64,000 nucleotides of DNA. It comes from a virus. The position numbers and the translations under genes are program-made. This document shows positions 1,019-62,092 of the stretch, one piece after another. Below the pieces are notes generated by a model, which was not told where the DNA came from, ran no database searches, and saw nothing but the letters and a program-made list of their open reading frames with translations. The number at the start of each line of letters is the position of its first letter. The first letter of the stretch is position 1. The DNA is taken from positions 1-64,000 of the IMG/VR virus record IMGVR_UViG_3300042449_001328. The stretch is one strand, 5' to 3'.

Positions 1019-1213
1019 TTAGTTAAATGGACATTGATATATATGATTGTTGGTGGCAATGCCGCCCCGCTCCAATGGTGCTTCGGGCATGGAAGCTATT
1101 CCTAGCACCGCCCACGCTTCGGGGCGGCACTGTTCGCGCCAACGCGCAAAGGCCGACCCAAGCCCACCAACATGGGGTTTAAAACATAGGGCAACATTTA
1201 GCGCGTTTTTCAT
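1019..1213 (-). CDS. Small cassette ORF (starts in the loop of site 1, crosses the core as ...KPHVGG...)
   Basis: 64 aa ORF with the same geometry as the other cassette ORFs; GC-rich, coding status uncertain. Confidence 0.35.
   Translation of the reverse strand: MKNALNVALCFKPHVGGLGSAFARWREQCRPEAWAVLGIASMPEAPLERGGIATNNHIYQCPFN
1031..1062 (+). other. Putative attI-like primary recombination site
   Basis: Lone GTT core (GTTGGTGGCAATGC at 1049) just upstream of the integrase start, with no preceding hairpin arm. Its complement CCACCAAC (1164-1171) closes the first cassette. Confidence 0.55.
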
Positions 1214-1867
1214 AGGTAGTTTCGTGGGAAGGTTTTAGAATTAATTGCCGCCCACGCGCGAGAAAGAGATAACCCAAACAAACGGGTTTTCATTCCATGA
1301 TTGTTGACCGTTGACTTTTTCCCATAACATTTGCCATGCAAGTTTAGGTGTACTGGATGTTGGTGAGCAAGCCCCTTCCTTGTAGCAATCAGCAATAGAA
1401 ATACCTTGCAGTTTTTCTGCGCTTATATCTTCAATCCTTAACTTTATTCGGCAAGCCTGTTTTGGCATAAAAATGCTTGGTTTCCATCTCCACTCTTCCA
1501 TAGTTTCCCAATCAGGGTCTGTGGCCCTGTAAACATATCCGTTATCTTCTCCAGCAAAATCAACGTATTGCCATGTTTCACGCACCCAAAGTATGTCTCC
1601 AATTTGTCCGTATGGGCATTGTGTTTTGATTGATTCCCACCACTTCGGGTTACTGGCGGTTTCCATCCATCCACGAAACGGTTCCTTTACTATCCTTCTT
1701 GTTTGTGTTTTGCTGCCATCTAAAATAGCCCTTACCATTGACCCAGAAAATAAAATTGGGTGTTCCTTTGCCCGCCCTTCGGCAATTAATTCTAAAACCT
1801 GTTCGTTTTCCATAGTTATTTTATCTGTTTAGTTGCCCTACGATTTTAAACCCCTTATACATTATGC
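1165..1867 (+). repeat. attC-like site 1 with a giant (~635 bp) loop
   Basis: CACCAAC 1165-1171; arm GGGGTTTAAAACATAGGGCAAC 1174-1195 pairs with GTTGCCCTACGATTTTAAACCCC 1832-1854; ATTATGC 1861-1867. Confidence 0.75.
1241..1813 (-). CDS. ASCH/PUA-like phage protein
   Basis: EHPILFSGSMVRAILDGSKTQTRR, CPYG..GD.LWVRETW, WKPSIFMP and W..NPFVWVISF motifs of a widespread phage family. Confidence 0.8.
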   Translation of the reverse strand: MENEQVLELIAEGRAKEHPILFSGSMVRAILDGSKTQTRRIVKEPFRGWMETASNPKWWESIKTQCPYGQIGDILWVRETWQYVDFAGEDNGYVYRATDPDWETMEEWRWKPSIFMPKQACRIKLRIEDISAEKLQGISIADCYKEGACSPTSSTPKLAWQMLWEKVNGQQSWNENPFVWVISFSRVGGN

Positions 1868-2092
1868 GTAATGCTCCGAATACTTCTGTTCAAGTTCAAG
1901 CATTTTATCCCATATCTCTTGGTGGTGGACACTATCCCAAGCACATAATCTTGGACTTTTCTTTTTCTCTTGCAAAAATGCTTTCAGTTCATTGTAACAA
2001 TTAGCACTACGCATAACATCGGCTATACGCAATTGCTCTTCGTATTTTTCAACGGTTTCTTTTGCTTTTAAGTAATCTTCTTTTTTTATCAT
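1862..2092 (-). CDS. Cassette hypothetical protein
   Basis: 76 aa; start lies in the loop of site 2; stop lies in the ATTATGC core. Confidence 0.7.
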   Translation of the reverse strand: MIKKEDYLKAKETVEKYEEQLRIADVMRSANCYNELKAFLQEKKKSPRLCAWDSVHHQEIWDKMLELEQKYSEHYA

Positions 2093-2141
2093 TTTGTTTA
2101 ATTTTTAAGTTCGCAACTGCGTATAGCCGTAGCCGTTAGGC
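2011..2141 (+). repeat. attC-like site 2
   Basis: GCATAAC; CGGCTATACGCAATTGC 2020-2036 / GCAACTGCGTATAGCCG 2113-2129; GTTAGGC 2135. Confidence 0.85.
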
Positions 2142-2145
2142 ACAA

Positions 2146-2385
2146 TTAAACCCAACTCTTCCAATGTGTAGGTGTGTAATAAACATACATACTACCATCA
2201 GGCAACCACCAAAGTTTACCATCAAACTTTAATTCTTGTTCGTTCCTTGAACCGTTTTCATCTTCAATTTTGGTCATCATCACCCTATTTTTTGGTGGAT
2301 GCTCTTCTGAAATTTTTTTCCACATAATAAAATTAACTGTGCCTAACAACGTATATAATGGATACGCCAATAAGCGGTTATACAT
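2146..2385 (-). CDS. Cassette hypothetical protein (DUF551-like, W.....PP...PTHW)
   Basis: MWKKISEEHPP...YTPTHWK resembles the phage DUF551 family; the true start may be the internal Met. Confidence 0.65.
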   Translation of the reverse strand: MYNRLLAYPLYTLLGTVNFIMWKKISEEHPPKNRVMMTKIEDENGSRNEQELKFDGKLWWLPDGSMYVYYTPTHWKSWV

Positions 2386-2434
2386 TTATTTAAGTTTATC
2401 GGTGGCGTACCCATCATATACGCAACCGTTATAG
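2341..2434 (+). repeat. attC-like site 3
   Basis: GCCTAAC; CGTATATAATGGATACGCCA 2350-2369 / TGGCGTACCCATCATATACG 2403-2422; GTTATAG 2428. Confidence 0.85.
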
Positions 2435-2457
2435 GAAATTTTATTTTTCCCATCGCA

Positions 2458-2808
2458 CTACGAAAAGTGCGAGAAAATGAACAGATAAGGTTCTGCAATT
2501 GGTTCATCTTCTTTCAGCTCAAAAACTTCACGGTATTTTGATTTTACCTTTTCTGCGTCTAAATTTTTGAAATCCAAGTGGACAAAATCCCATCCTTCAT
2601 ATTTATCTCCACCGCTTTCAATCCGTATTCCAAATACGTTATATTGTCCACACATTCCATCGCTTACAAGTGTAAATTCTTCGCCTTGATGTCCTTCAAT
2701 CATTGGCAAAAATTTATCATCCGATAAATCAATTTTACCGTTTTCGTTTTTTAGTTCATAAGGTAATTTATACCCGTAAACAATGTAATCTGTTCTATCT
2801 ACTCCCAT
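2458..2808 (-). CDS. Cassette hypothetical protein
   Basis: 116 aa ORF filling the cassette between sites 3 and 4. Confidence 0.75.
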   Translation of the reverse strand: MGVDRTDYIVYGYKLPYELKNENGKIDLSDDKFLPMIEGHQGEEFTLVSDGMCGQYNVFGIRIESGGDKYEGWDFVHLDFKNLDAEKVKSKYREVFELKEDEPIAEPYLFIFSHFS

Positions 2809-2850
2809 TTTTAAATTTGTTTAAGCCAACCCACAAAAAATAAAACTATC

Positions 2851-2947
2851 CTATAACACGGGTTTGGCGTAATGCCACCAGATAGTTTGTGCCTAAATTT
2901 AAAGTTCGTGCAAGGTGGCACTAACGCCAAGCCCGAAATCGTTAGGC
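2851..2947 (+). repeat. attC-like site 4
   Basis: CTATAAC; CGGGTTTGGCGTAATGCCACC 2859-2879 / GGTGGCACTAACGCCAAGCCCG 2914-2935; GTTAGGC 2941. Confidence 0.85.
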
Positions 2948-2960
2948 ACAATAAAATTTG

Positions 2961-3185
2961 CTACCCAACGCACTCCCATTCAACATCAGGAAATTGTTCA
3001 GCAAATCTTTGTTTCTCCTCTGCCTGTCCCTGCTTTACTTCTTTCAATACCTGTTCTTTTGGTATTTCTAAACTTGGCTTATAATTGCTTATACAAAATG
3101 GGTTTCCAGCCCACAAGTTCCAATATTTACGCCCTTTCTTTAACCATGCGTAGTCAGCTATTTGTTCAAATCCTTTAAAATTCAT
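2961..3185 (-). CDS. Cassette hypothetical protein
   Basis: 74 aa ORF filling the cassette between sites 4 and 5. Confidence 0.7.
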   Translation of the reverse strand: MNFKGFEQIADYAWLKKGRKYWNLWAGNPFCISNYKPSLEIPKEQVLKEVKQGQAEEKQRFAEQFPDVEWECVG

Positions 3186-3204
3186 AATCGCAAATTTTAC
3201 AGAT

Positions 3205-3296
3205 GCCTAACATGCGGTAAAAGTAAGCCGCAGAAAGGCTGTTACTAAATTTGAGCAGTCTACAAAGCGGCCTACTCTTACCGCCAACCGTTAGTG
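3205..3296 (+). repeat. attC-like site 5
   Basis: GCCTAAC; GCGGTAAAAGTAAGCCGC 3214-3231 / GCGGCCTACTCTTACCGC 3267-3284; GTTAGTG 3290. Confidence 0.85.
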
Positions 3297-3302
3297 GTAA
3301 TG

Positions 3303-3524
3303 CTATAAACACACACCATTAAATGTGTTCAAATAGTTTTTGAACTTTATATAAACATCAAGCATATCGTCAACATGTATTTGTTGCTTATCAAAAACTA
3401 TTTTAGCACTACCTGTATCTAACACAACATTTGGTGGTGTTACCGTAAAAGCACTACCACTAACAGCAAGTATATTCAATTGCTCACTTTCTTGGTTATT
3501 TTCAATTTTATCTTTCATACCCAC
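3303..3524 (-). CDS. Cassette hypothetical protein
   Basis: 73 aa; start in the loop of site 6; crosses the arm and core as QLNILAVSGS. Confidence 0.65.
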   Translation of the reverse strand: MGMKDKIENNQESEQLNILAVSGSAFTVTPPNVVLDTGSAKIVFDKQQIHVDDMLDVYIKFKNYLNTFNGVCL

Positions 3525-3590
3525 TCTTATTTGTTAATTAAACTTTTGTTTTTCAAAGTCGCAACTAATTATACTTGCAACTCGTTAGCA
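3458..3590 (+). repeat. attC-like site 6
   Basis: CACTAAC; GCAAGTATATTCAATTGC 3466-3483 / GCAACTAATTATACTTGC 3561-3578; GTTAGCA 3584. Confidence 0.8.
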
Positions 3591-3594
3591 GCCA

Positions 3595-3846
3595 TTAAGG
3601 TAGCGTTTCCAATTCATCGTGACTAAATGTTAAACAAGCTATTGTCCCTTGCGGCACTTGTGGACAAAACTCACCCCACATATTCCATGCCTTGCCATCT
3701 TTTGCAACCACTTGACAAGCAATGAATCTATCATCAGGCAATCCTTCAAGTGCCTTTTTAAGAGTTCCAACCGTATGAAAATTAACGGCTGCTAACACAT
3801 TATTTGCGTCAGTGGGGGTTTCGTGCTTTTTAGAATCTGTCTGCAT
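3595..3846 (-). CDS. Cassette hypothetical protein
   Basis: 83 aa; start in the loop of site 7; crosses the core as DANNVLAA. Confidence 0.7.
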   Translation of the reverse strand: MQTDSKKHETPTDANNVLAAVNFHTVGTLKKALEGLPDDRFIACQVVAKDGKAWNMWGEFCPQVPQGTIACLTFSHDELETLP

Positions 3847-3922
3847 AATTTAAAAATTTGTACTGTTAATAATCTTTGGTGGTGTAACGCCCCACCGAAC
3901 GCAAATAATCGTAACGTTACCT
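3790..3922 (+). repeat. attC-like site 7
   Basis: TGCTAAC; ATTATTTGCGTCAGTGGGG / CCCCACCGAACGCAAATAAT (ends 3909); GTTACCT 3916. Confidence 0.8.
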
Positions 3923-3929
3923 GCAAGTG

Positions 3930-4142
3930 CTACATTTCGGTTTCAAATAAACTTGGTGCAGAAAAACTTTTATTAAAATTTCCCACTCTCTTATTTATAA
4001 TTTCAAAATACTTTTCGTCAATCTCATAACTCACAGTATCAAAACCTAATTCATTTGCAACTTTGCTTGTCGTTCCGCTTCCTCCAAACGGGTCAATAAT
4101 TGTTTCGCCTTCCTTTGCAGTTATCTGTATAAGATGGGTGTT
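3930..4142 (-). pseudogene. 5'-truncated DNA N4/N6-methyltransferase fragment
   Basis: Manual translation IQITAKEGETIIDPFGGSGTTSKVANELGFDTVSYEIDEKYFEIINKR...ETEM* (motif I DPFxGSGTT); in-frame stop upstream and no start codon. Confidence 0.8.
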
Positions 4143-4253
4143 TCAAACGCCCCCGCGCTGGTTTAATTTTAAAAAAGTTTTAGTTTGTATTTCATATTTA
4201 AGTTTGTGCTATGCCTGTTTCAGCAGCTACACTTGATACATTAGTGGCAAGTG

Positions 4254-4412
4254 CTACATATTGCTATCCAAAAGTTTTATGCTTCTGTATATCGGTATAA
4301 ATAAAAGCCAATAGGTTGTTACAAGATGTACCTCTAAATGAGATTTATCTTTAAAACCAGCATCAAAACTTTTCACATACATTTTTCTTTTGTGTTCTGT
4401 TCTTTTTATCAT
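4254..4412 (-). CDS. Small cassette protein (52 aa, below the ORF-track cutoff)
   Basis: MIKRTEHKRKMYVKSFDAGFKDKSHLEVHLVTTYWLLFIPIYRSIKLLDSNM* fills the cassette 4240-4444. Confidence 0.65.
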   Translation of the reverse strand: MIKRTEHKRKMYVKSFDAGFKDKSHLEVHLVTTYWLLFIPIYRSIKLLDSNM

Positions 4413-4437
4413 TTTCGTTTAATTTAACCGCACCAGC

Positions 4438-4571
4438 CACTAACATTGCATTGCAAAAAGCAGGGCTGACGTAATGCTTTCAACAATGGGAATACTATTA
4501 AACTTCACCTATAACGCATTGGGCAGACGTATTCCAATTCCCCTGCCTTCTGCAATGCTTTGCCGTTAGCG
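4438..4571 (+). repeat. attC-like site 9 (site 8 survives only as a right half, ATTAGTG at 4240)
   Basis: CACTAAC; GCATTGCAAAAAGCAGGG 4448-4465 / CCCTGCCTTCTGCAATGC 4541-4558; GTTAGCG 4565. Confidence 0.85.
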
Positions 4572-4577
4572 GCAACC

Positions 4578-4793
4578 CTAAACGACCGCAGTAAACGTGG
4601 TTAAAGATTTACGAACGGTTACTTCTTCGCCTTTTTCGACTTCATTGTAAGCAAGAATAGCTTTTGCCTTTCCTTTGGTAATTATACCACTTGCCCAAGT
4701 TTCATCTTGATGGGTAAGTTGCATTCTAAATTTCCCTTTTCGTTGAGATACTACATCGTAAATCTTTCCAACTTCTAAATTTTGATTTTCCAT
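4578..4793 (-). CDS. Cassette hypothetical protein
   Basis: 71 aa ORF filling the cassette 4565-4828. Confidence 0.7.
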   Translation of the reverse strand: MENQNLEVGKIYDVVSQRKGKFRMQLTHQDETWASGIITKGKAKAILAYNEVEKGEEVTVRKSLTTFTAVV

Positions 4794-4899
4794 TTTATTT
4801 TGATTTGTGAAGAAGGGCAGCCGCTAACAACGTGCTTGTGCCATTTAAAAATGCGTCAAAGTTCAGTGCCTTTAATCAAGTTCGGTGAGCAAAATAAAT

Positions 4900-5289
4900 T
4901 TAAACAACCCCACCGCACTCCTTCGTAGAAAGTTCGTGTTGCAATTGAAAGTACACGTCAAAGAGTAATTCAATTTCCTTTGCCCGTTCGACAATTTTTC
5001 CTTGTATAATCTCACGGAACTTGTCATAGTTTTCAGGCTCTATTTTATTATGCCAAGAGTGTTTCCATGTGTCCATATCAATTACTATTTTGATAAGTTC
5101 TTTTAAGGGGTCATCACCAAAACAATTTGGTTTCTCCCACCTTAATTCAAACCCGTCTTTGATAATGTACTCTTTGTCTCCTGAAAACGGTCTTACAATT
5201 TCGTAACGTTTCGCAGTCCCTTCAATTGTTGTACCTCTAAGGCCAACACCAATTTTACTAAGTTGGTTGATAAATTCTAAATGATCCAT
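4900..5289 (-). CDS. Hypothetical protein in the array
   Basis: 129 aa ORF. Confidence 0.7.
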   Translation of the reverse strand: MDHLEFINQLSKIGVGLRGTTIEGTAKRYEIVRPFSGDKEYIIKDGFELRWEKPNCFGDDPLKELIKIVIDMDTWKHSWHNKIEPENYDKFREIIQGKIVERAKEIELLFDVYFQLQHELSTKECGGVV

Positions 5290-5608
5290 CGCTCAAGTTG
5301 TTTAAATTTATTTTGTTTAGTATTTCAAATTAATATCGTGACACACAATCCAAAGCCTTGCTATCCGTGCCTAGTTTCGGGTTGGGTGCGCCAGCTGCTA
5401 ACAACGTGTTTGCCTCATGGCTGAAAGTGCTATTTGATATTTTTGTTTTCATCTATAAAATTTATCTGTTCAAAAATCTATCCGTTACCCACCGCATTAG
5501 AAACTACTAACTCATTTCCGGTGTGCTTCGTTTCTTTTTCCACTTGGCGGTATCATGTCTATTTTGCGCTTTACTCATCTCTATTTATTTAGTTCGTGTT
5601 CGGCCATT

Positions 5609-5863
5609 TTACTGACACATATTTGCGGCTACATTAGTTGTAATTCTACTCAACACCATTCTGTTTAAGATACTCATTGAACATACCTTTCTTTTAAGTC
5701 CTTCAATCATATAATCTTCTAACTGCTTGTTAAGTTGAGAAGAAAGCCTACCTATAACATCCGCTATAAGAATATTTGTTCTTTCTGCATTCATTGGTTG
5801 TAATTTAAAGTTAAGTAGTTCTAAATCCGCGTAATTGAAAAAGCGTCTGAGTTCGTATTTCAT
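5609..5863 (-). CDS. Probably chimeric or degenerate cassette ORF
   Basis: Crosses core 5752 as ILIADVIGR; the flanking cores are not complementary. Confidence 0.35.
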   Translation of the reverse strand: MKYELRRFFNYADLELLNFKLQPMNAERTNILIADVIGRLSSQLNKQLEDYMIEGLKRKVCSMSILNRMVLSRITTNVAANMCQ

Positions 5864-6008
5864 AAGTCAGTCCATATAGGTGTAGCCACAAAATTGTAAT
5901 CTCAATCGTTTACTTTTACAAAATGAGAATCGCCAGTCATTTTCATCAAAGCCGTAAAGGTCTCCTCTGTAAAGAATAAACTCGCATAGCCACTTTCCAT
6001 CTTGGTTA

Positions 6009-6224
6009 CTACAACAAAGGAATTTTGTGTATAAGTGTTTCATAATTTCGTTTACATTTGTTAGTGGCAGTTAACTCACCGCCAACATTGTGTTTGAGTA
6101 ATTTTCGTTCACGTTCCAAAACAACAGCTTCATCAAGTAATGAAACTATATATCTAACATCAATCATTGATACTTCGCCAATTTCTCCAGCTATCAATAT
6201 TTGTTCTTTAGTATATTTTTTCAT
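6009..6224 (-). CDS. Array-distal small ORF coupled to the primase stop
   Basis: ATG overlaps the primase TGA; crosses the cores as HNVGGELTATN. Confidence 0.55.
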   Translation of the reverse strand: MKKYTKEQILIAGEIGEVSMIDVRYIVSLLDEAVVLERERKLLKHNVGGELTATNKCKRNYETLIHKIPLL

Positions 6225-7195
6225 AAATAATCTAAGTTTATTTGCATAAAATTAACACTTTTTGTCATAAGTTCCAATGATTGTTCCTCATTTATATCTC
6301 CAGGGTCAAATCCGTTTAAATGAGCTACCCTTACCTCAAAATGGGTTGATAGGTATGCAGCTATTGTTTTTACTTTATCCAAAACGTCAGCTTCAAACCA
6401 TAACCAAATGACAGTCAAGCCTTTATCCTTTAGTAGTTGAACTTGTTGTTCACTTATCTTAGCACCAAATGTAGCCACGCACTTTAACCAATCTTGAGTG
6501 TGTAACTGTAGATTATAATCTGTCTTTGTCTTTGACAATATACCTTCCACTAGGATTACATCAGTTGTTTTGCCTTTTATTATTTCATCGTATCCAAACA
6601 GCATTTTACTGAAATCACTCATCGAGTTCTCATAACGTAGGTACTTTTTGCCCCCTGTTTTTTTTATTTCTTCATTGTAAGCATCTATCCATGCTTTGCT
6701 TTTTATAGACCTTGACACATATCCTGTTATCTTGCCTTCCATTTCAACTAGGAAAGTAATGTAGTCTTTCTTTAGTCTTGATACTCCTATCTTATATTGC
6801 TCGAATTGATAGGACTGCATTCCTCTTTCGTTTTGAAGATATTCGTTTTCAAATACCCTCTTCCATCCTACAGGAGGTTGAACTTCTGGTAATTCTTGTT
6901 GCTGTATTATGTCTTCACTTGTTTCAAATACATCTAGCAATAATCCTTCTGGGTCTATTTCTCTTTCTTGTACAAATTCTTTAAATTTATTTAAGTGTTT
7001 TAAAAGTGTGTATATATTCCCCGTGAAGCCACATTTGGACTTTCTGAAGCAACTGAACGGGTGGTTATTTTCTACAATAGAAATTCCAAACTCATCATGA
7101 CCACACTGAGGGCATAACCCGTAAATATCTTTACCGTCAGAACTGGGTCTTGGATTGGATATGAGTTGCTGCAACTGGTCTTTTGTGAGTTTCAT
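6221..7195 (-). CDS. DNA primase (Zn finger + TOPRIM)
   Basis: CPQCG...C...C zinc finger; VILVEG TOPRIM motif; DPGD. Confidence 0.85.
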   Translation of the reverse strand: MKLTKDQLQQLISNPRPSSDGKDIYGLCPQCGHDEFGISIVENNHPFSCFRKSKCGFTGNIYTLLKHLNKFKEFVQEREIDPEGLLLDVFETSEDIIQQQELPEVQPPVGWKRVFENEYLQNERGMQSYQFEQYKIGVSRLKKDYITFLVEMEGKITGYVSRSIKSKAWIDAYNEEIKKTGGKKYLRYENSMSDFSKMLFGYDEIIKGKTTDVILVEGILSKTKTDYNLQLHTQDWLKCVATFGAKISEQQVQLLKDKGLTVIWLWFEADVLDKVKTIAAYLSTHFEVRVAHLNGFDPGDINEEQSLELMTKSVNFMQINLDYL

Positions 7196-7424: not shown

Positions 7425-7868
7425 TTATTGTTTGCTTAATTTTGTTTCATTTGATTTTATTCTAACTTTTAAGCTGTGTAGTGGGCATGTTACCCATCCA
7501 TCGCTATCGCATTTTTCGTTTGACAAATCGTATCCTTTATGTGGACATTTTAATTTTTCTAAATTTTTGTAATTTAATTTTGAATTAGATATAAAGGTGT
7601 CTGGTGTTCTATACAAATGTTCTTTAAAATACATCCTTCTTTTTCGGTAACATATTTTTATTAAAAAATTTGGATCGTTTTCAATTCTAGTGGTATTTAT
7701 TTTTTTCAATAAATTCTTATGATGTTTTTTGCTTATAAACCTAAAATCTACATGATAGTGTGGTGTCATTTGACCGTTCTCTTTATCGTGATGCAAATGA
7801 TTGTATATAGGCACAATTAGCCTTTCAGGAAAAGATAATACAGCGCAAGGGACTTTGTGTTTTATCAT
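7425..7868 (-). CDS. Protein with a C-terminal Rieske-like [2Fe-2S] motif
   Basis: CPHKGYDL...VTCPLH (CxH...CxxH). Confidence 0.65.
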   Translation of the reverse strand: MIKHKVPCAVLSFPERLIVPIYNHLHHDKENGQMTPHYHVDFRFISKKHHKNLLKKINTTRIENDPNFLIKICYRKRRMYFKEHLYRTPDTFISNSKLNYKNLEKLKCPHKGYDLSNEKCDSDGWVTCPLHSLKVRIKSNETKLSKQ

Positions 7869-9250
7869 TTTTGCTTTGGAGCGTTCTTTATTATCTTGTT
7901 ATTGATGGGGTCCCAAAATCTTTTGTTGGTCTCTTGTATGTCTATAAATCTGCCTTTATTTCTATCTTGTGCTATATGATAAGTAGATTCCCATGAAAGT
8001 ATTTTTTGAAACCTGAATGCCTCTTCATGTATGCGCATTATGTCTTTATCATTTTCATCGTCTGTTTGATTTAAAGTAATTGTATAAGCAAAGGGGTCTA
8101 CTGTAGCTTTTAAATTTGAAATATTCTCTCTTGTGATAACAAAATTAGGATCGTTGTAATCTTTTTTCTCTATACTAGATGCTTGAGTGGCAGTGGCGCA
8201 AAATATTTTAAACTCAGTTGCTATGTTGACAATTTTTTCCGCAACAGCTAATTTTTTAGCCCTCTCCCCCTCTGCATTAGTTCCATATCTCTTTCCGTCA
8301 CCTGGATCAAATTTTTCAAGATAATCAAAAATTGCCCATTTTATATTATACTCCTTCATTAAATCCAATATAGCTTGCCTACACTCTGCTATGGAAGCAG
8401 AATTAAATTGTTCATAAGAAACAATGAATATTTCCCCACATTGAGCTAGGAAAGATTTTCTAGCCTTTTCAATAGTCTCTACATCTTTGCCTGTCAAATC
8501 CCCTTTCCTTATATCCATCATAGGCACACCAGTCCACATTGCATCATAAGCATCTTCAACTTCTGATTTTGTACCTTCAGCTTGAAAATGAATTCCATTA
8601 TGCCCCCTGAAAGCCAAATTGTGACCTATTGATCTCAAACAAGTACTTTTACCTACTCCTTTTCTAGCAATCACTAACATTGCCCTTCCAGGTTCAACCC
8701 CTCCCTTAGTGTGATAATCAAAAGCAGGTATGCCAATAGGCCACTTTACATTTGTAAAATCCCTTTGCTTTCTTTCTTGTTGCCGTCTATCAAAATCAGA
8801 AAATACTCTAGTGTGAAGTTTTGAAGTTAAACAAAATGAGTTTATCTCTTTGCTCTCCTTCTCAAGCAGCAACATAGCTTTCTCATGTTCCTGCTTATTG
8901 TACATCTCCTTAACGTCTTCATGTAGTTTTTGAAACCTGCCTTTCTTGATGAAAGATTCAAAGGACTGCATGATCTGGTCTTTACTATCATGTATTGAAG
9001 TTTCCCTAATGTTGTTCAGTACATTTATCAAGGAAGGTTTTTGAGGCAAGTTTTGAGATAATGTCCCTAAAGTAGGGATTTTTGAATGTATGCCATGATA
9101 GTCAAATATGTATTTAAAAACTTCTTTATACTCCTCTCCTTTTATGAAAGAATAATTCAAATGCTGTTTGACAATCTCTGTCACATCTTGACTAGATAGA
9201 CATAGCTTTGCCAGCTCGTTGAGATAGTTGCTTGAAAGTTTATCTGACAT
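7865..9250 (-). CDS. Replicative DnaB-like helicase
   Basis: Walker A ARKGVGKST, catalytic E in QAEG, Walker B IFDYLE, TATQ. Confidence 0.88.
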   Translation of the reverse strand: MSDKLSSNYLNELAKLCLSSQDVTEIVKQHLNYSFIKGEEYKEVFKYIFDYHGIHSKIPTLGTLSQNLPQKPSLINVLNNIRETSIHDSKDQIMQSFESFIKKGRFQKLHEDVKEMYNKQEHEKAMLLLEKESKEINSFCLTSKLHTRVFSDFDRRQQERKQRDFTNVKWPIGIPAFDYHTKGGVEPGRAMLVIARKGVGKSTCLRSIGHNLAFRGHNGIHFQAEGTKSEVEDAYDAMWTGVPMMDIRKGDLTGKDVETIEKARKSFLAQCGEIFIVSYEQFNSASIAECRQAILDLMKEYNIKWAIFDYLEKFDPGDGKRYGTNAEGERAKKLAVAEKIVNIATEFKIFCATATQASSIEKKDYNDPNFVITRENISNLKATVDPFAYTITLNQTDDENDKDIMRIHEEAFRFQKILSWESTYHIAQDRNKGRFIDIQETNKRFWDPINNKIIKNAPKQK

Positions 9251-39323: not shown

Positions 39324-40304
39324 TTATTTTTGCCCAAGTTCTTTTTGTTTTTGAAAATGATGTTGAGCTTGAGATTGATGATATTTGAAAGCCTCTTGAG
39401 CAGCATTGCTTTGCTCTTTATCAAATCCTACTCCAAAAGCTTCTTTAGTAGCATGTCCAGCCATCCTTGTGTGGAAAGCCTCCATCTTACTGTGATGCTC
39501 AATCTGCTTTTTCTTTTGATCGGCTAGGATTTTCTTTTCGTCTTTTGATAGGCTCGATTCGTGTTCGGATTGAGCATACTTTTGTGACTGCGTATCGTGA
39601 TACTTTGCTTCGTCAGCATGATGCTTGTGAAGTTTCATTTCTAAATCTCTTGCAGCATACCCAACTTTACCTGCTGTATCAAAATGACGAGCAGCTTTAT
39701 CTCTATGGGCAGTGGCTGCATCTGAATAATCTTTTGAAGATAAATTACCTCCACCTATTTTACCATCAGCATAGATTGGCTTTCCACTAGAAGTATGTCC
39801 GATCACATGACCTCCACGAGAGCCTTCGCCTGATTTGGCTTTGATGAGGTCGAGGTCTGAGTCGGATTTTTGCAATAATCCGTTTTTAACTCCTATATGA
39901 TGTTTTTGTTGTTCAAAAGCATAATCATTATCTTCCTTGTCTTTGGCAGTCGATCTAGTGTTATAATGATAATTTTCTCTAACCTTACCATGAGCGTCAA
40001 TAGCATCATTATGATCTTCAACTGTAAAGTCTTTATGGGAACTATGGTCTGCATTACTGTAGATAGGTTTACCAGATTTTGTGTGTCCTATTATGTGACC
40101 TCCTCTACTTCCCTCACCGCCTTTAACTAGCAAGTTCTCCAACTGATCAATTGCCTTATTATATACATCTTGATCGATCAATCCTTTTGATAGATTGTCA
40201 GATAGTTGTTTTCTGATCTGAACCTCAGTGGGAATATTTTCTACAAATCCCTTAACTAGATGAGGATTGGTTGATTGGTTTTTGTAGTCGTCAATAGTGA
40301 TCAT
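39324..40304 (-). CDS. Repeat-module His-rich protein, probable internal head protein
   Basis: Two GEGSRGGH.IGHT.SGKPIY modules; N-terminus paralogous to 32867..34267. Confidence 0.7.
   Translation of the reverse strand: MITIDDYKNQSTNPHLVKGFVENIPTEVQIRKQLSDNLSKGLIDQDVYNKAIDQLENLLVKGGEGSRGGHIIGHTKSGKPIYSNADHSSHKDFTVEDHNDAIDAHGKVRENYHYNTRSTAKDKEDNDYAFEQQKHHIGVKNGLLQKSDSDLDLIKAKSGEGSRGGHVIGHTSSGKPIYADGKIGGGNLSSKDYSDAATAHRDKAARHFDTAGKVGYAARDLEMKLHKHHADEAKYHDTQSQKYAQSEHESSLSKDEKKILADQKKKQIEHHSKMEAFHTRMAGHATKEAFGVGFDKEQSNAAQEAFKYHQSQAQHHFQKQKELGQK
39811..39871. repeat. 61-bp exact direct repeat, copy 2
   Basis: Identical to 33852-33912. Confidence 0.9.
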
Positions 40305-60878: not shown

Positions 60879-60885
60879 ATTTTTG

Positions 60886-61300
60886 TGGACCTGAGCGGAT
60901 TCGAACCGCTGTCCAGATAGCATACAATACCACGATTACTTACAGCTTGTTTGGTTTAAGTCCAACAACTCACTTTTAGGGCTACCAGCAGTTTTTCAAC
61001 TACCTACAACCTCCACCATTCGATTGCCATTACTTCTTTTGTGTCATATCGAAAATCCCCTTTGTTTTACTCATTAAGCAGCAAGCTCTAATTCTTGCTC
61101 TGCTTCAACTCTATTAAAGTTAAAGGCTGAGAAATCAAAACCTACTTTTGCATCTTGACGATTGCCAATAGTACCACCTAGGATACTGTTAGCGATTAAT
61201 TGATTGTCAATTGTTTGTGTATGCATATTTTCAGTAGGTACAGCATACTTCCCTACGCTGATTGTGTTACCAATTACTACTGTCAATTCCTGTCAGGCCC
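60886..61300 (-). ncRNA. ssrA: tmRNA
   Basis: 5' GGGCCTGACAGGAATTGACAG; 3' AGCGGTTCGAATCCGCTCAGGTCCA with a G3:U wobble; internal tag frame ending ...ELELAA-TAA-TGA. Confidence 0.9.
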
Positions 61301-62019: not shown

Positions 62020-62092
62020 ATCCGATGGACGGGTTCGAACCGACAACCTTCTGCTTACAAGGCAGTAGCTCTTCCACATGAGCTTCATCGGA
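62020..62092 (-). tRNA. tRNA-Thr(UGU), slightly atypical
   Basis: TCCGATG/CATCGGA acceptor, GCTC/GAGC D stem, CTGC-CTTGTAA-GCAG, GTCGG-TTCGAAC-CCGTC; CCA not encoded. Confidence 0.8.

Follow-up and report, generated by a model that had tools for sequence, protein, structure and literature searches.

What kind of element places a run of very small genes, interspersed with palindromes, directly upstream of a tyrosine recombinase gene in a phage genome, and why do these genes point in the same direction as the recombinase? The question is raised by the viral record IMGVR_UViG_3300042449_001328, a contig of 89,689 bases without terminal overlap, of which we analyzed the first 64 kb (here called the window). 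Positions 1049-4571 of the window hold about ten integron-type cassettes beside the gene for a 270-amino-acid (aa) Xer/IntI-like recombinase, and all credible genes in this region lie on the minus strand. We consider it probable that this is a phage-borne, integron-like cassette array whose genes lie on the recombinogenic ("bottom") strand, with a hairpin that heads each gene and often holds its start codon.

Read on the minus strand, a complete site consists of a 5' core (RYYYAAC), a spacer of 4-6 nucleotides (nt), a stem of 12-24 bp, a loop of 33-77 nt, the returning stem, a spacer of 1-3 nt, and a 3' core (GTTRRRY). This is the architecture of an integron attC site, in which the R and L boxes are imperfect inverted repeats around a variable loop and the AAC and GTT triplets are conserved; the spacers are asymmetric, with 3-4 extra bases on the 5' arm and with 4/1 and 5/1 as the commonest combinations. 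Seven complete two-stem sites and an eighth with a giant loop are present (Table 1). A strict scan of the 89.7-kb genome recovered six sites in the array and three matches elsewhere, compared with three matches in total over ten shuffled genomes (about 0.3 per genome), while a permissive hairpin scan was dropped as too noisy, with 69 matches in the genome and 21-36 in shuffles. Between one site and its downstream neighbor on the minus strand, the 3' core of the former and the 5' core of the latter are complementary for as many as 15 nt, and every such pair has a sequence different from those of the pairs beside it. Complementary core pairs flanking cassettes are a hallmark of integron cassettes. 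Extrahelical bases on the L'' (3') arm were not found in the stems, which are gapless for 12-24 bp, 1-base bulges not having been systematically searched for. The hairpins are not followed by a run of T. Toward the primase gene, only 3' half-sites are left, and those at 4813-4900 and 5387-5470 fold weakly on both strands.

Which strand of these sites folds? Predicted DNA folding energy is lower on the minus strand in all seven complete window sites, and the stem mismatches on that strand, with G.T and A.C scored symmetrically, number ten G.T and one A.C. The same polarity is found among relatives of the recombinase, for which we compiled 69 loci from IMG/VR, 40 of them evaluable (integrase identity of 45% or more, with no less than 1 kb of sequence before the gene). 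The 8 kb preceding the integrase gene contained at least one site in 38 of the 40 loci, at least two in 32, and at least five in 16, whereas only 1 of 15 loci with distant integrases had a site. These sites lie on the integrase strand 230 times and on the other strand 13 times. Across the family, stems carry 529 G.T versus 164 A.C mismatches on the integrase strand, with G.T exceeding A.C in 200 of 256 sites and the reverse in 21. The lengths of the 211 distinct sites cluster near 54, 92-96, and 129-136 nt; the stems covary, and the loops are conserved within a length class. One primase relative, L070, contained no sites.

The crossover point can be located where close relatives differ. Isolates of the Polaribacter phage Freya, cultured representatives of one phage species whose integrase is 35.6% identical to that of the window, differ only in small genes, 0 to 12 of them, that precede the integrase gene. 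In Freya_1, _6, _8, _9, and _10, the compared flanks are approximately 99.5 to 100% identical, and what sets the isolates apart is blocks of small genes adjoining the integrase gene on its upstream side. For three of the four such differences, both break points fall exactly behind an AAC core; for that of Freya_6, this is true of the left side only. Freya_1 is without these small genes, its distal core being joined straight to the docking region, and Freya_10 has 12 extra ones. Freya_9 lacks one integrase-proximal 305-nt cassette of Freya_10, at a junction about 50 nt before the integrase ATG, and the annotated 81-aa gene of this cassette starts inside its own site. (In Danklef, a second phage species on another host strain, 38% of the Freya_10 array is shared at 97.3% identity.) Among the IMG/VR loci, the comparisons of L010 with L011, of L012/L014 with L013 and with L015, and of L021 with L022 break at AAC and are followed by a shared docking region, and L001 and L010 share a 315-nt unit, 100% identical and bounded by two successive 5' cores, in surroundings that differ. 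Cassette boundaries hence fall at the AAC/GTT crossover both in the chain of cores in the window and, with two exceptions discussed below, in the breaks between relatives. Cassettes shared between differing contexts were too diverse for a separate test of the boundary: at the nucleotide level, only 2 of 36 pairs were informative, and in opposite directions, and at the protein level, eight pairs gave two upstream linkages, two downstream linkages, and four of neither kind. The end points of BLAST matches and the sister phages were more informative.

In known integrons, the integrase picks the bottom strand so that the promoterless cassette genes face away from intI and are read from the cassette promoter Pc. 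The accessible part of Nivina 2016 (PMC5027507) describes this bottom strand of attC as carrying RYYYAAC in the R' box, as being cut between A and C of AAC, and as being enriched in G:T pairs; according to the same part, the top strand carries the cassette genes, and neither mobile nor chromosomal integrons have ever been seen to contain cassettes in the reverse orientation. In the phage array, this layout of top-strand genes read away from intI, each followed by its attC, is not found. The coding strand runs instead through cassettes, AAC, docking region, and integrase gene in sense. Since it is the coding strand that folds better, carries the AAC crossover core, and presents array, docking region, and integrase in the order of a canonical bottom strand, the recombination geometry appears to be canonical and the genes flipped. 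The preliminary description of this locus, which had called the cassette genes antisense to the canonical orientation, is borne out on this point. Judged indirectly, by the G.T polarity and the folding energies, the coding strand would recombine as a folded single strand.

The docking region would be a short A/T-rich motif that follows the last AAC core and lies about 50 nt before the integrase ATG; by eye, it is present in the window and in most of 18 related loci, and we regard it as a candidate attI-like site. That cassettes enter beside the integrase gene was judged in the relatives only. The adjoining enzyme is presumed to be the cassette recombinase. It scores 186.6 bits against the XerA/integron-integrase model (cutoff, 220) and 161.6 bits, in two stretches, against TIGR02249 (cutoff, 265), and its best solved relative is XerA (4a8e). 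In the alignment with the Vibrio cholerae integrase VchIntIA (2a3v), query residues 176-212 (37 residues) stand opposite residues 175-259 (85 residues), so that about 48 residues are absent. With both profile scores below cutoff and this gap in the 2a3v alignment, the IntI-specific insertion, or extra domain, was not detected in the recombinase. In integron integrases, this insertion contacts the extrahelical bases. The enzyme is closest in sequence to the Xer/XerA dimer resolvases, but its context, arrays of hairpin sites, is unlike dif resolution.

Are the small genes real, and on which strand? When codon usage is scored with 34 long genes of the phage as the training set, 13 of the 15 minus-strand open reading frames (ORFs) of the array score positive and 15 of the 16 plus-strand ORFs score negative, in agreement with the earlier claim that the cargo ORFs all run on the minus strand, like the integrase. 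The family gives the same picture: among 162 non-redundant cassettes, the cargo is better covered by the integrase-strand ORF than by any antisense one in 158, and worse in 2, with a median coverage of 0.86 in sense and 0.20 in antisense.

A sense ORF spans 60% or more of the cargo in 118 of these cassettes; 47 of them have the ATG in the loop of the site, 68 have it in the cargo, and 3 have it elsewhere. Loop starts occur in 37 of 57 sites of 108-136 nt and in 4 of 4 longer ones, compared with 1 of 35 at 77-98 nt and 5 of 22 at 52-61 nt. A loop ATG whose frame stays open to the end of the site is present in 84 of 209 sites in sense versus 7 of 209 in antisense, and in the 82 cassettes whose cargo frame is open from the first base, the loop ATG is in the cargo frame 49 times, versus 18 times for the other two frames together. 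In 30 of the 47 loop-start ORFs, the GTT of the core is read as a valine codon, which explains the recurrent peptide that had been noticed in the window; all seven versions quoted then are found in the ORF translations, and they derive from the 3' arm, spacer, and core. At the other end of the gene, 29 of the 118 cassettes use the core TAA as their stop, 73 stop at a distance of 2-23 nt ahead of the core, 14 stop earlier, and 2 stop past it. Stops in the window were likewise correctly described as falling in or just before the opposite core: ORF 1862-2092, which reads via the 3' arm and core, ends in the TAA of the next core, ORFs 2146-2385, 3303-3524, and 3595-3846 end 5-7 nt before a core, and ORFs 2961-3185 and 2458-2808 end 14 and 24 nt before one. 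The five window ORFs that had been named as starting in a loop do so, yet one of them, ORF 1019-1213 (codon score, -0.14 per codon), is probably not a gene; two further ORFs, 5609-5863 and 6009-6224, do cross half-sites, as seen by eye.

The leaders encoded by the sites behave differently from the cargo parts. ORF 1862-2092 and the ORFs L002:9084-9320 and L009:9293-9544 share a leader of about 26 residues, and their cargo parts are unrelated; the L009 cargo is without any methionine, and in the L002 cargo the first one comes close to the end. The cargo domain of ORF 3595-3846, by contrast, is retained in 27 database homologues, and among the 21 of these that were aligned (65-96% identity), the leaders vary in sequence and length, with two carrying other N termini. 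Three of four window leaders have coding-like codon usage. Taken together, the loop ATG is likely to be used as a start, and selection appears to act on an open frame with a start rather than on a particular peptide. Among the 68 cassettes with a cargo start, 39 also have a loop ATG from which a short ORF runs beyond the site. The stop of this ORF forms an ATGA overlap with the main ATG in 6 cases and lies within 12 nt of it in 13, which may reflect termination-reinitiation coupling or chance; coupling was dropped as a candidate, 6 of 39 not being clearly above chance.

These observations can be assembled into a mechanism. On the coding strand, a cassette starts with the C of an AAC core and ends with the AA of the following one, in the order spacer, 5' arm, loop, 3' arm, GTTRRRY core, cargo, and RYYYAA, with the hairpin site leading the gene rather than trailing it. 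New cassettes would enter the docking site directly upstream of the co-oriented recombinase gene. If transcription of the phage runs one way and the relative placement of core, docking site, and integrase gene is dictated by the recombinase, only cassettes with their gene on the folding strand would be expressible. The hairpin would lie at the 5' end of the message, and many sites, mainly of the class of about 130 nt, offer a loop ATG; with the frame open through the 3' arm and core, the resulting proteins would carry a variable leader of 7-30 residues, recurrent in its core-derived part, and the gene usually ends in or just before the TAA of the next core. It is tempting to go further and to view the site as a portable "gene head" that combines a recombination site, a start codon, and a disposable N-terminal leader, such that captured DNA lacking a start would be expressed as a fusion within a phage operon read one way, a possibility that we advance tentatively.

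Several other explanations have to be weighed. The array might be integron-like with its loop ATGs unused: translation would begin at an xTG triplet of the 3' spacer or core, or in the cargo, leaving the hairpin as an untranslated 5' element and the open leader frames as by-products that are tolerated. A number of observations lean this way and weigh against the use of loop starts. Cargo starts are the commoner class (68 of 118), an xTG triplet is present at the core in 159 of 162 sites, and in 44 of the 47 loop-start cassettes an in-frame ATG, GTG, or TTG occurs between the 3' arm and 20 codons past the core, so that shorter products may be made. Five of the 21 aligned homologues of ORF 3595-3846 start at the core and are leaderless. 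Moreover, in 15 pairs, the leaders evolve approximately neutrally, with 24 synonymous versus 67 non-synonymous changes, 45, 30, and 49 differences at codon positions 1, 2, and 3, and a divergence of 0.21 versus 0.24 in the untranslated part of the loop; this codon-position analysis detected no purifying selection, which argues against a functional leader sequence. On the other hand, loop ATGs favor the cargo frame, with 49 occurrences compared with about 9 in each of the other two, 25 of the 47 loop-start cassettes have no in-frame ATG near the core, the L009 and L002 cargos offer little or no methionine to start from, and the codon usage of most window leaders is coding-like. We regard this alternative as rather unlikely, and the proposal that the site doubles as coding sequence and translation start as favored by the family statistics, with the alternative starts, the neutral leaders, and the more numerous cargo starts standing against it.

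Alternatively, selection on the hairpins might act chiefly at the level of the mRNA, on transcript stability, processing, or control of translation between phage genes, with DNA exchange proceeding via short duplex cores or the other strand. The folding strand is also the mRNA sense strand, so energies and G.T counts cannot separate DNA from RNA folding, and selection on mRNA hairpins would equally give the observed G.T polarity; start codons also sit in the loops. As a more general point against the reading that we prefer, two shared-cargo pairs do not fit 5' core boundaries (L010/L047 ends at a 3' core, and L016/L017 breaks inside the gene), and the clean crossover evidence comes from relatives with integrases 35-63% identical, not from this phage. 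Against the mRNA reading, the homology of sister phages ends precisely at AAC in the 5' core, next to the gene for a tyrosine recombinase, each cassette lies between complementary cores, the two-stem architecture and asymmetric spacer match attC sites, and one Polaribacter phage site, delivered single-stranded, recombined with IntI1 according to the accessible part of PMC9892861; selection mainly on mRNA structure is in our view quite improbable. Still less probable, and by far, is an ordinary lysogeny integrase that stands beside the array by coincidence, the small genes being accessory genes separated by palindromes. The integrases of Freya, Danklef, and Leef have indeed been taken as a sign of a temperate lifestyle (PMC8776804, in the part available), but same-strand sites lie just upstream of the integrase in 38 of 40 related loci and in only 1 of 15 loci with distant integrases, and cassette gain and loss map to the junction about 50 nt before the integrase ATG. 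Finally, the array could have the canonical orientation after all, with plus-strand ORFs, some as long as 87 aa (e.g., 2915-3178), as the real genes and the minus-strand ORFs as chance frames. Given the opposite signs of the coding scores on the two strands, the family count of 158 versus 2, and the 27 database homologues of the ORF 3595-3846 protein, this is scarcely credible. The integron-like array with genes on its folding strand remains the explanation that we prefer.

The coordinates of the array and its surroundings are collected in Table 1.

Table 1. Features of the cassette array and neighboring genes, in window coordinates, from the recombinase end to the helicase end
Feature	Position	Strand	Description
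Tyrosine recombinase	184-996	minus	270 aa, Xer/IntI-like; presumed cassette recombinase
Candidate docking region (attI-like) with last AAC core	997-1048; core 1049-1055		Region on minus strand; core in plus-strand coordinates; directly upstream of integrase ATG
Complete two-stem sites (n = 7)	2011-2141, 2341-2434, 2851-2947, 3205-3296, 3458-3590, 3790-3922, 4438-4571	minus	
Eighth, giant-loop site	arms 1174-1195 and 1832-1853; loop 1196-1831	minus	636-nt loop
Integrase-proximal cassette	1056-1867	minus	GC-rich structured segment 1056-1165 (110 nt) plus site with 636-nt loop; 5' core degenerate (AAT for AAC)
ORF 1241-1813	1241-1813	minus	190 aa; wholly inside 636-nt loop; codon score +0.20 per codon
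ORF 1019-1213	1019-1213	minus	Start in 636-nt loop; crosses GC-rich structured segment; probably not a gene
Cassette with site 2011-2141	1862-2135 (274 bp)	minus	ORF 1862-2092, 76 aa, start at 2092 in loop 2037-2112
Cassette with site 2341-2434	2136-2434 (293 bp)	minus	ORF 2146-2385, 79 aa, start in loop 2370-2402
Cassette with site 2851-2947	2429-2947	minus	ORF 2458-2808, 116 aa, entirely in cargo
Cassette with site 3205-3296	2942-3296	minus	ORF 2961-3185, 74 aa, entirely in cargo
Cassette with site 3458-3590	3291-3590 (294 bp)	minus	ORF 3303-3524, 71-73 aa, start in loop 3484-3560 (GTG at 3524, ATG at 3518)
Cassette with site 3790-3922	3585-3922 (332 bp)	minus	ORF 3595-3846, 83 aa, DUF6225-like cargo, start in loop 3819-3889
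N6/N4 DNA methyltransferase fragment	3933-4142	minus	Start-less C-terminal fragment, PF01555, E 4e-13, profile positions 173-221 of 221; decayed cassette
Cassette with site 4438-4571	4242-4571	minus	ORF 4254-4412, 52 aa, cargo start; next core degenerate
Primase-proximal part of array	4572-6224	minus	ORFs 4578-4793, 4900-5289, 5330-5452, 5609-5863, 6009-6224; 3' half-sites only, read by eye
Half-site cores	near 4821, 5395, 5752, 6080		Located by eye
Primase	6221-7195	minus	
Helicase	7865-9250	minus	

Some parts of the array depart from the regular pattern. The gene-less 110-nt segment of the integrase-proximal cassette, within 1049-1172, has about 65% G+C in a phage of 36% G+C; as minus-strand RNA it folds with -65.4 kcal/mol (z, -3.6), a value that none of 200 shuffles equaled, and an Rfam search of 950-1300 with E-values up to 1 gave no match. 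A second inverted repeat, perfect over 21 nt (1230-1250 and 1780-1800), overlaps ORF 1241-1813 at either end. In the cores beside decayed cassettes (1861 and 4241), A replaces the G of GTT. The cores at 3916 and 4241 are both followed, by eye, by the same stretch of about 13 nt, neighboring cassettes here sharing their 3' ends. ORF 5867-6043, with a codon score of -0.10, is a doubtful gene.

At the level of the genome, nearly all ORFs of at least 100 aa lie on the minus strand, where the order is helicase, primase, small-ORF array, recombinase, and a further gene. The stop-start overlaps that had been claimed at both ends of the array are present as ATGA, between the primase and ORF 6009-6224 at 6221-6224 and between the integrase and the next gene at 184-187. 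Together with the one-directional layout, they are consistent with expression by read-through from the helicase-primase operon, which is a reasonable guess, and promoters inside the loops are possible as well. A scan for sigma-70 promoters and terminators gave no excess, its models not representing Bacteroidota promoters. Over the window, Rfam matched only a tRNA and a transfer-messenger RNA (tmRNA); the tmRNA and tRNA genes lie at 60883-61300 and 62020-62092, both on the minus strand.

What do the cassettes carry? Pfam matched 9 of 143 cassette proteins of the related loci, namely, four N6/N4 DNA methylases, two YopX proteins, and one each of RNA ligase, DUF6527, and GNAT. Searches of the window cassette proteins against Pfam and NCBIfam gave no firm match beyond the methyltransferase fragment, with DUF6225 and DUF3067 as weak ones.

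How does the array compare with known systems? With classical integrons, such as class 1 integrons or that of V. cholerae (VchIntIA, PDB accession no. 2a3v), it shares a tyrosine recombinase adjoining a docking site, one-gene cassettes, imperfect two-stem palindromes with RYYYAAC/GTTRRRY cores, crossover at AAC, a G.T bias toward one strand, and the order of array, docking site, and integrase gene of the canonical bottom strand. It differs from them in that the strand that folds and bears AAC also carries the genes, each preceded by its site and pointing the same way as the integrase gene, in that a divergent cassette promoter is not apparent and the recombinase is without the IntI-specific insertion, in that the L stems are gapless, with no bulged base on the 3' arm, and the spacer is asymmetric (4-6 versus 1-3 nt), and in that start codons sit in the loop. 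In the "inverted integrase" integrons of Treponema and others, integrase and cassette genes are also co-directional, as in the phage array. There, however, the integrase is flipped and the cassettes keep the order of gene and then attC, whereas the phage array keeps the integrase-site relation canonical and flips the genes.

Clusters of attC sites lacking an integrase (CALINs) were reported in 17 phages, among them the Polaribacter phage P12002L, one of whose sites is the one recombined with IntI1 (Qi 2023, PMC9892861, accessible part). These phage CALINs resemble the array in having attC-type sites in phages of Flavobacteriia and DNA methyltransferases as recurrent cargo; the same part of that paper gives two predicted sites per tested phage, in "divergent directions" in P12002L, reports no dedicated phage recombinase, and is silent on how genes are oriented with respect to the folding strand and on start codons within sites. 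Our own site scan of P12002L (L073) found seven sites on the coding strand of the early genes and one on the other strand. Several loops in this phage enclose whole small genes (e.g., 39512-39713). Because its recombinase fails the IntI models, the window array might be filed as a CALIN by IntegronFinder, if its sites pass the attC model. In the available part of Bartlau 2021 (PMC8776804), the Freya genomes are given as 44.0-48.9 kb, without comment on cassettes.

What appears to be the nearest known case of a recombination site supplying translation is ORF-11 of attI1 in class 1 integrons, a site-borne frame treated together with ORF-17 and ORF-18 in a review (PMC8876359, part available). As in the phage sites, a short frame begins at its own start in the recombination site, extends across the crossover point, and helps to translate the inserted cassette; these frames, however, lie in attI and aid only the first cassette, by coupling, whereas in the phage each cassette brings its own site, with the frame often fused to the cargo. 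A literature search, which covered few subscription journals, turned up phage attC clusters (Qi 2023) and ORF-11 of attI1 but did not find flipped gene orientation or attC-like loop start codons in phage arrays.

Together, the findings point to a widespread phage system that keeps the geometry of integron recombination, places its genes on the recombined strand, and carries at the head of each gene a site that often includes the start codon, presumably operated by an enzyme without the domain thought to read extrahelical bases. Tools that require IntI and canonical gene order will miss or misorient such arrays. Because cultured Freya isolates differ by whole cassettes, the system is directly testable, and it possibly explains how a phage plugs in tiny accessory genes, mostly of unknown function and with methyltransferases as a recurrent theme. 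If the site indeed serves as a portable gene head, the phage integron would shuffle protein parts and could give rise to new small proteins, and, the folding strand being non-template, transcription could expose the hairpin and so couple cassette turnover to expression.

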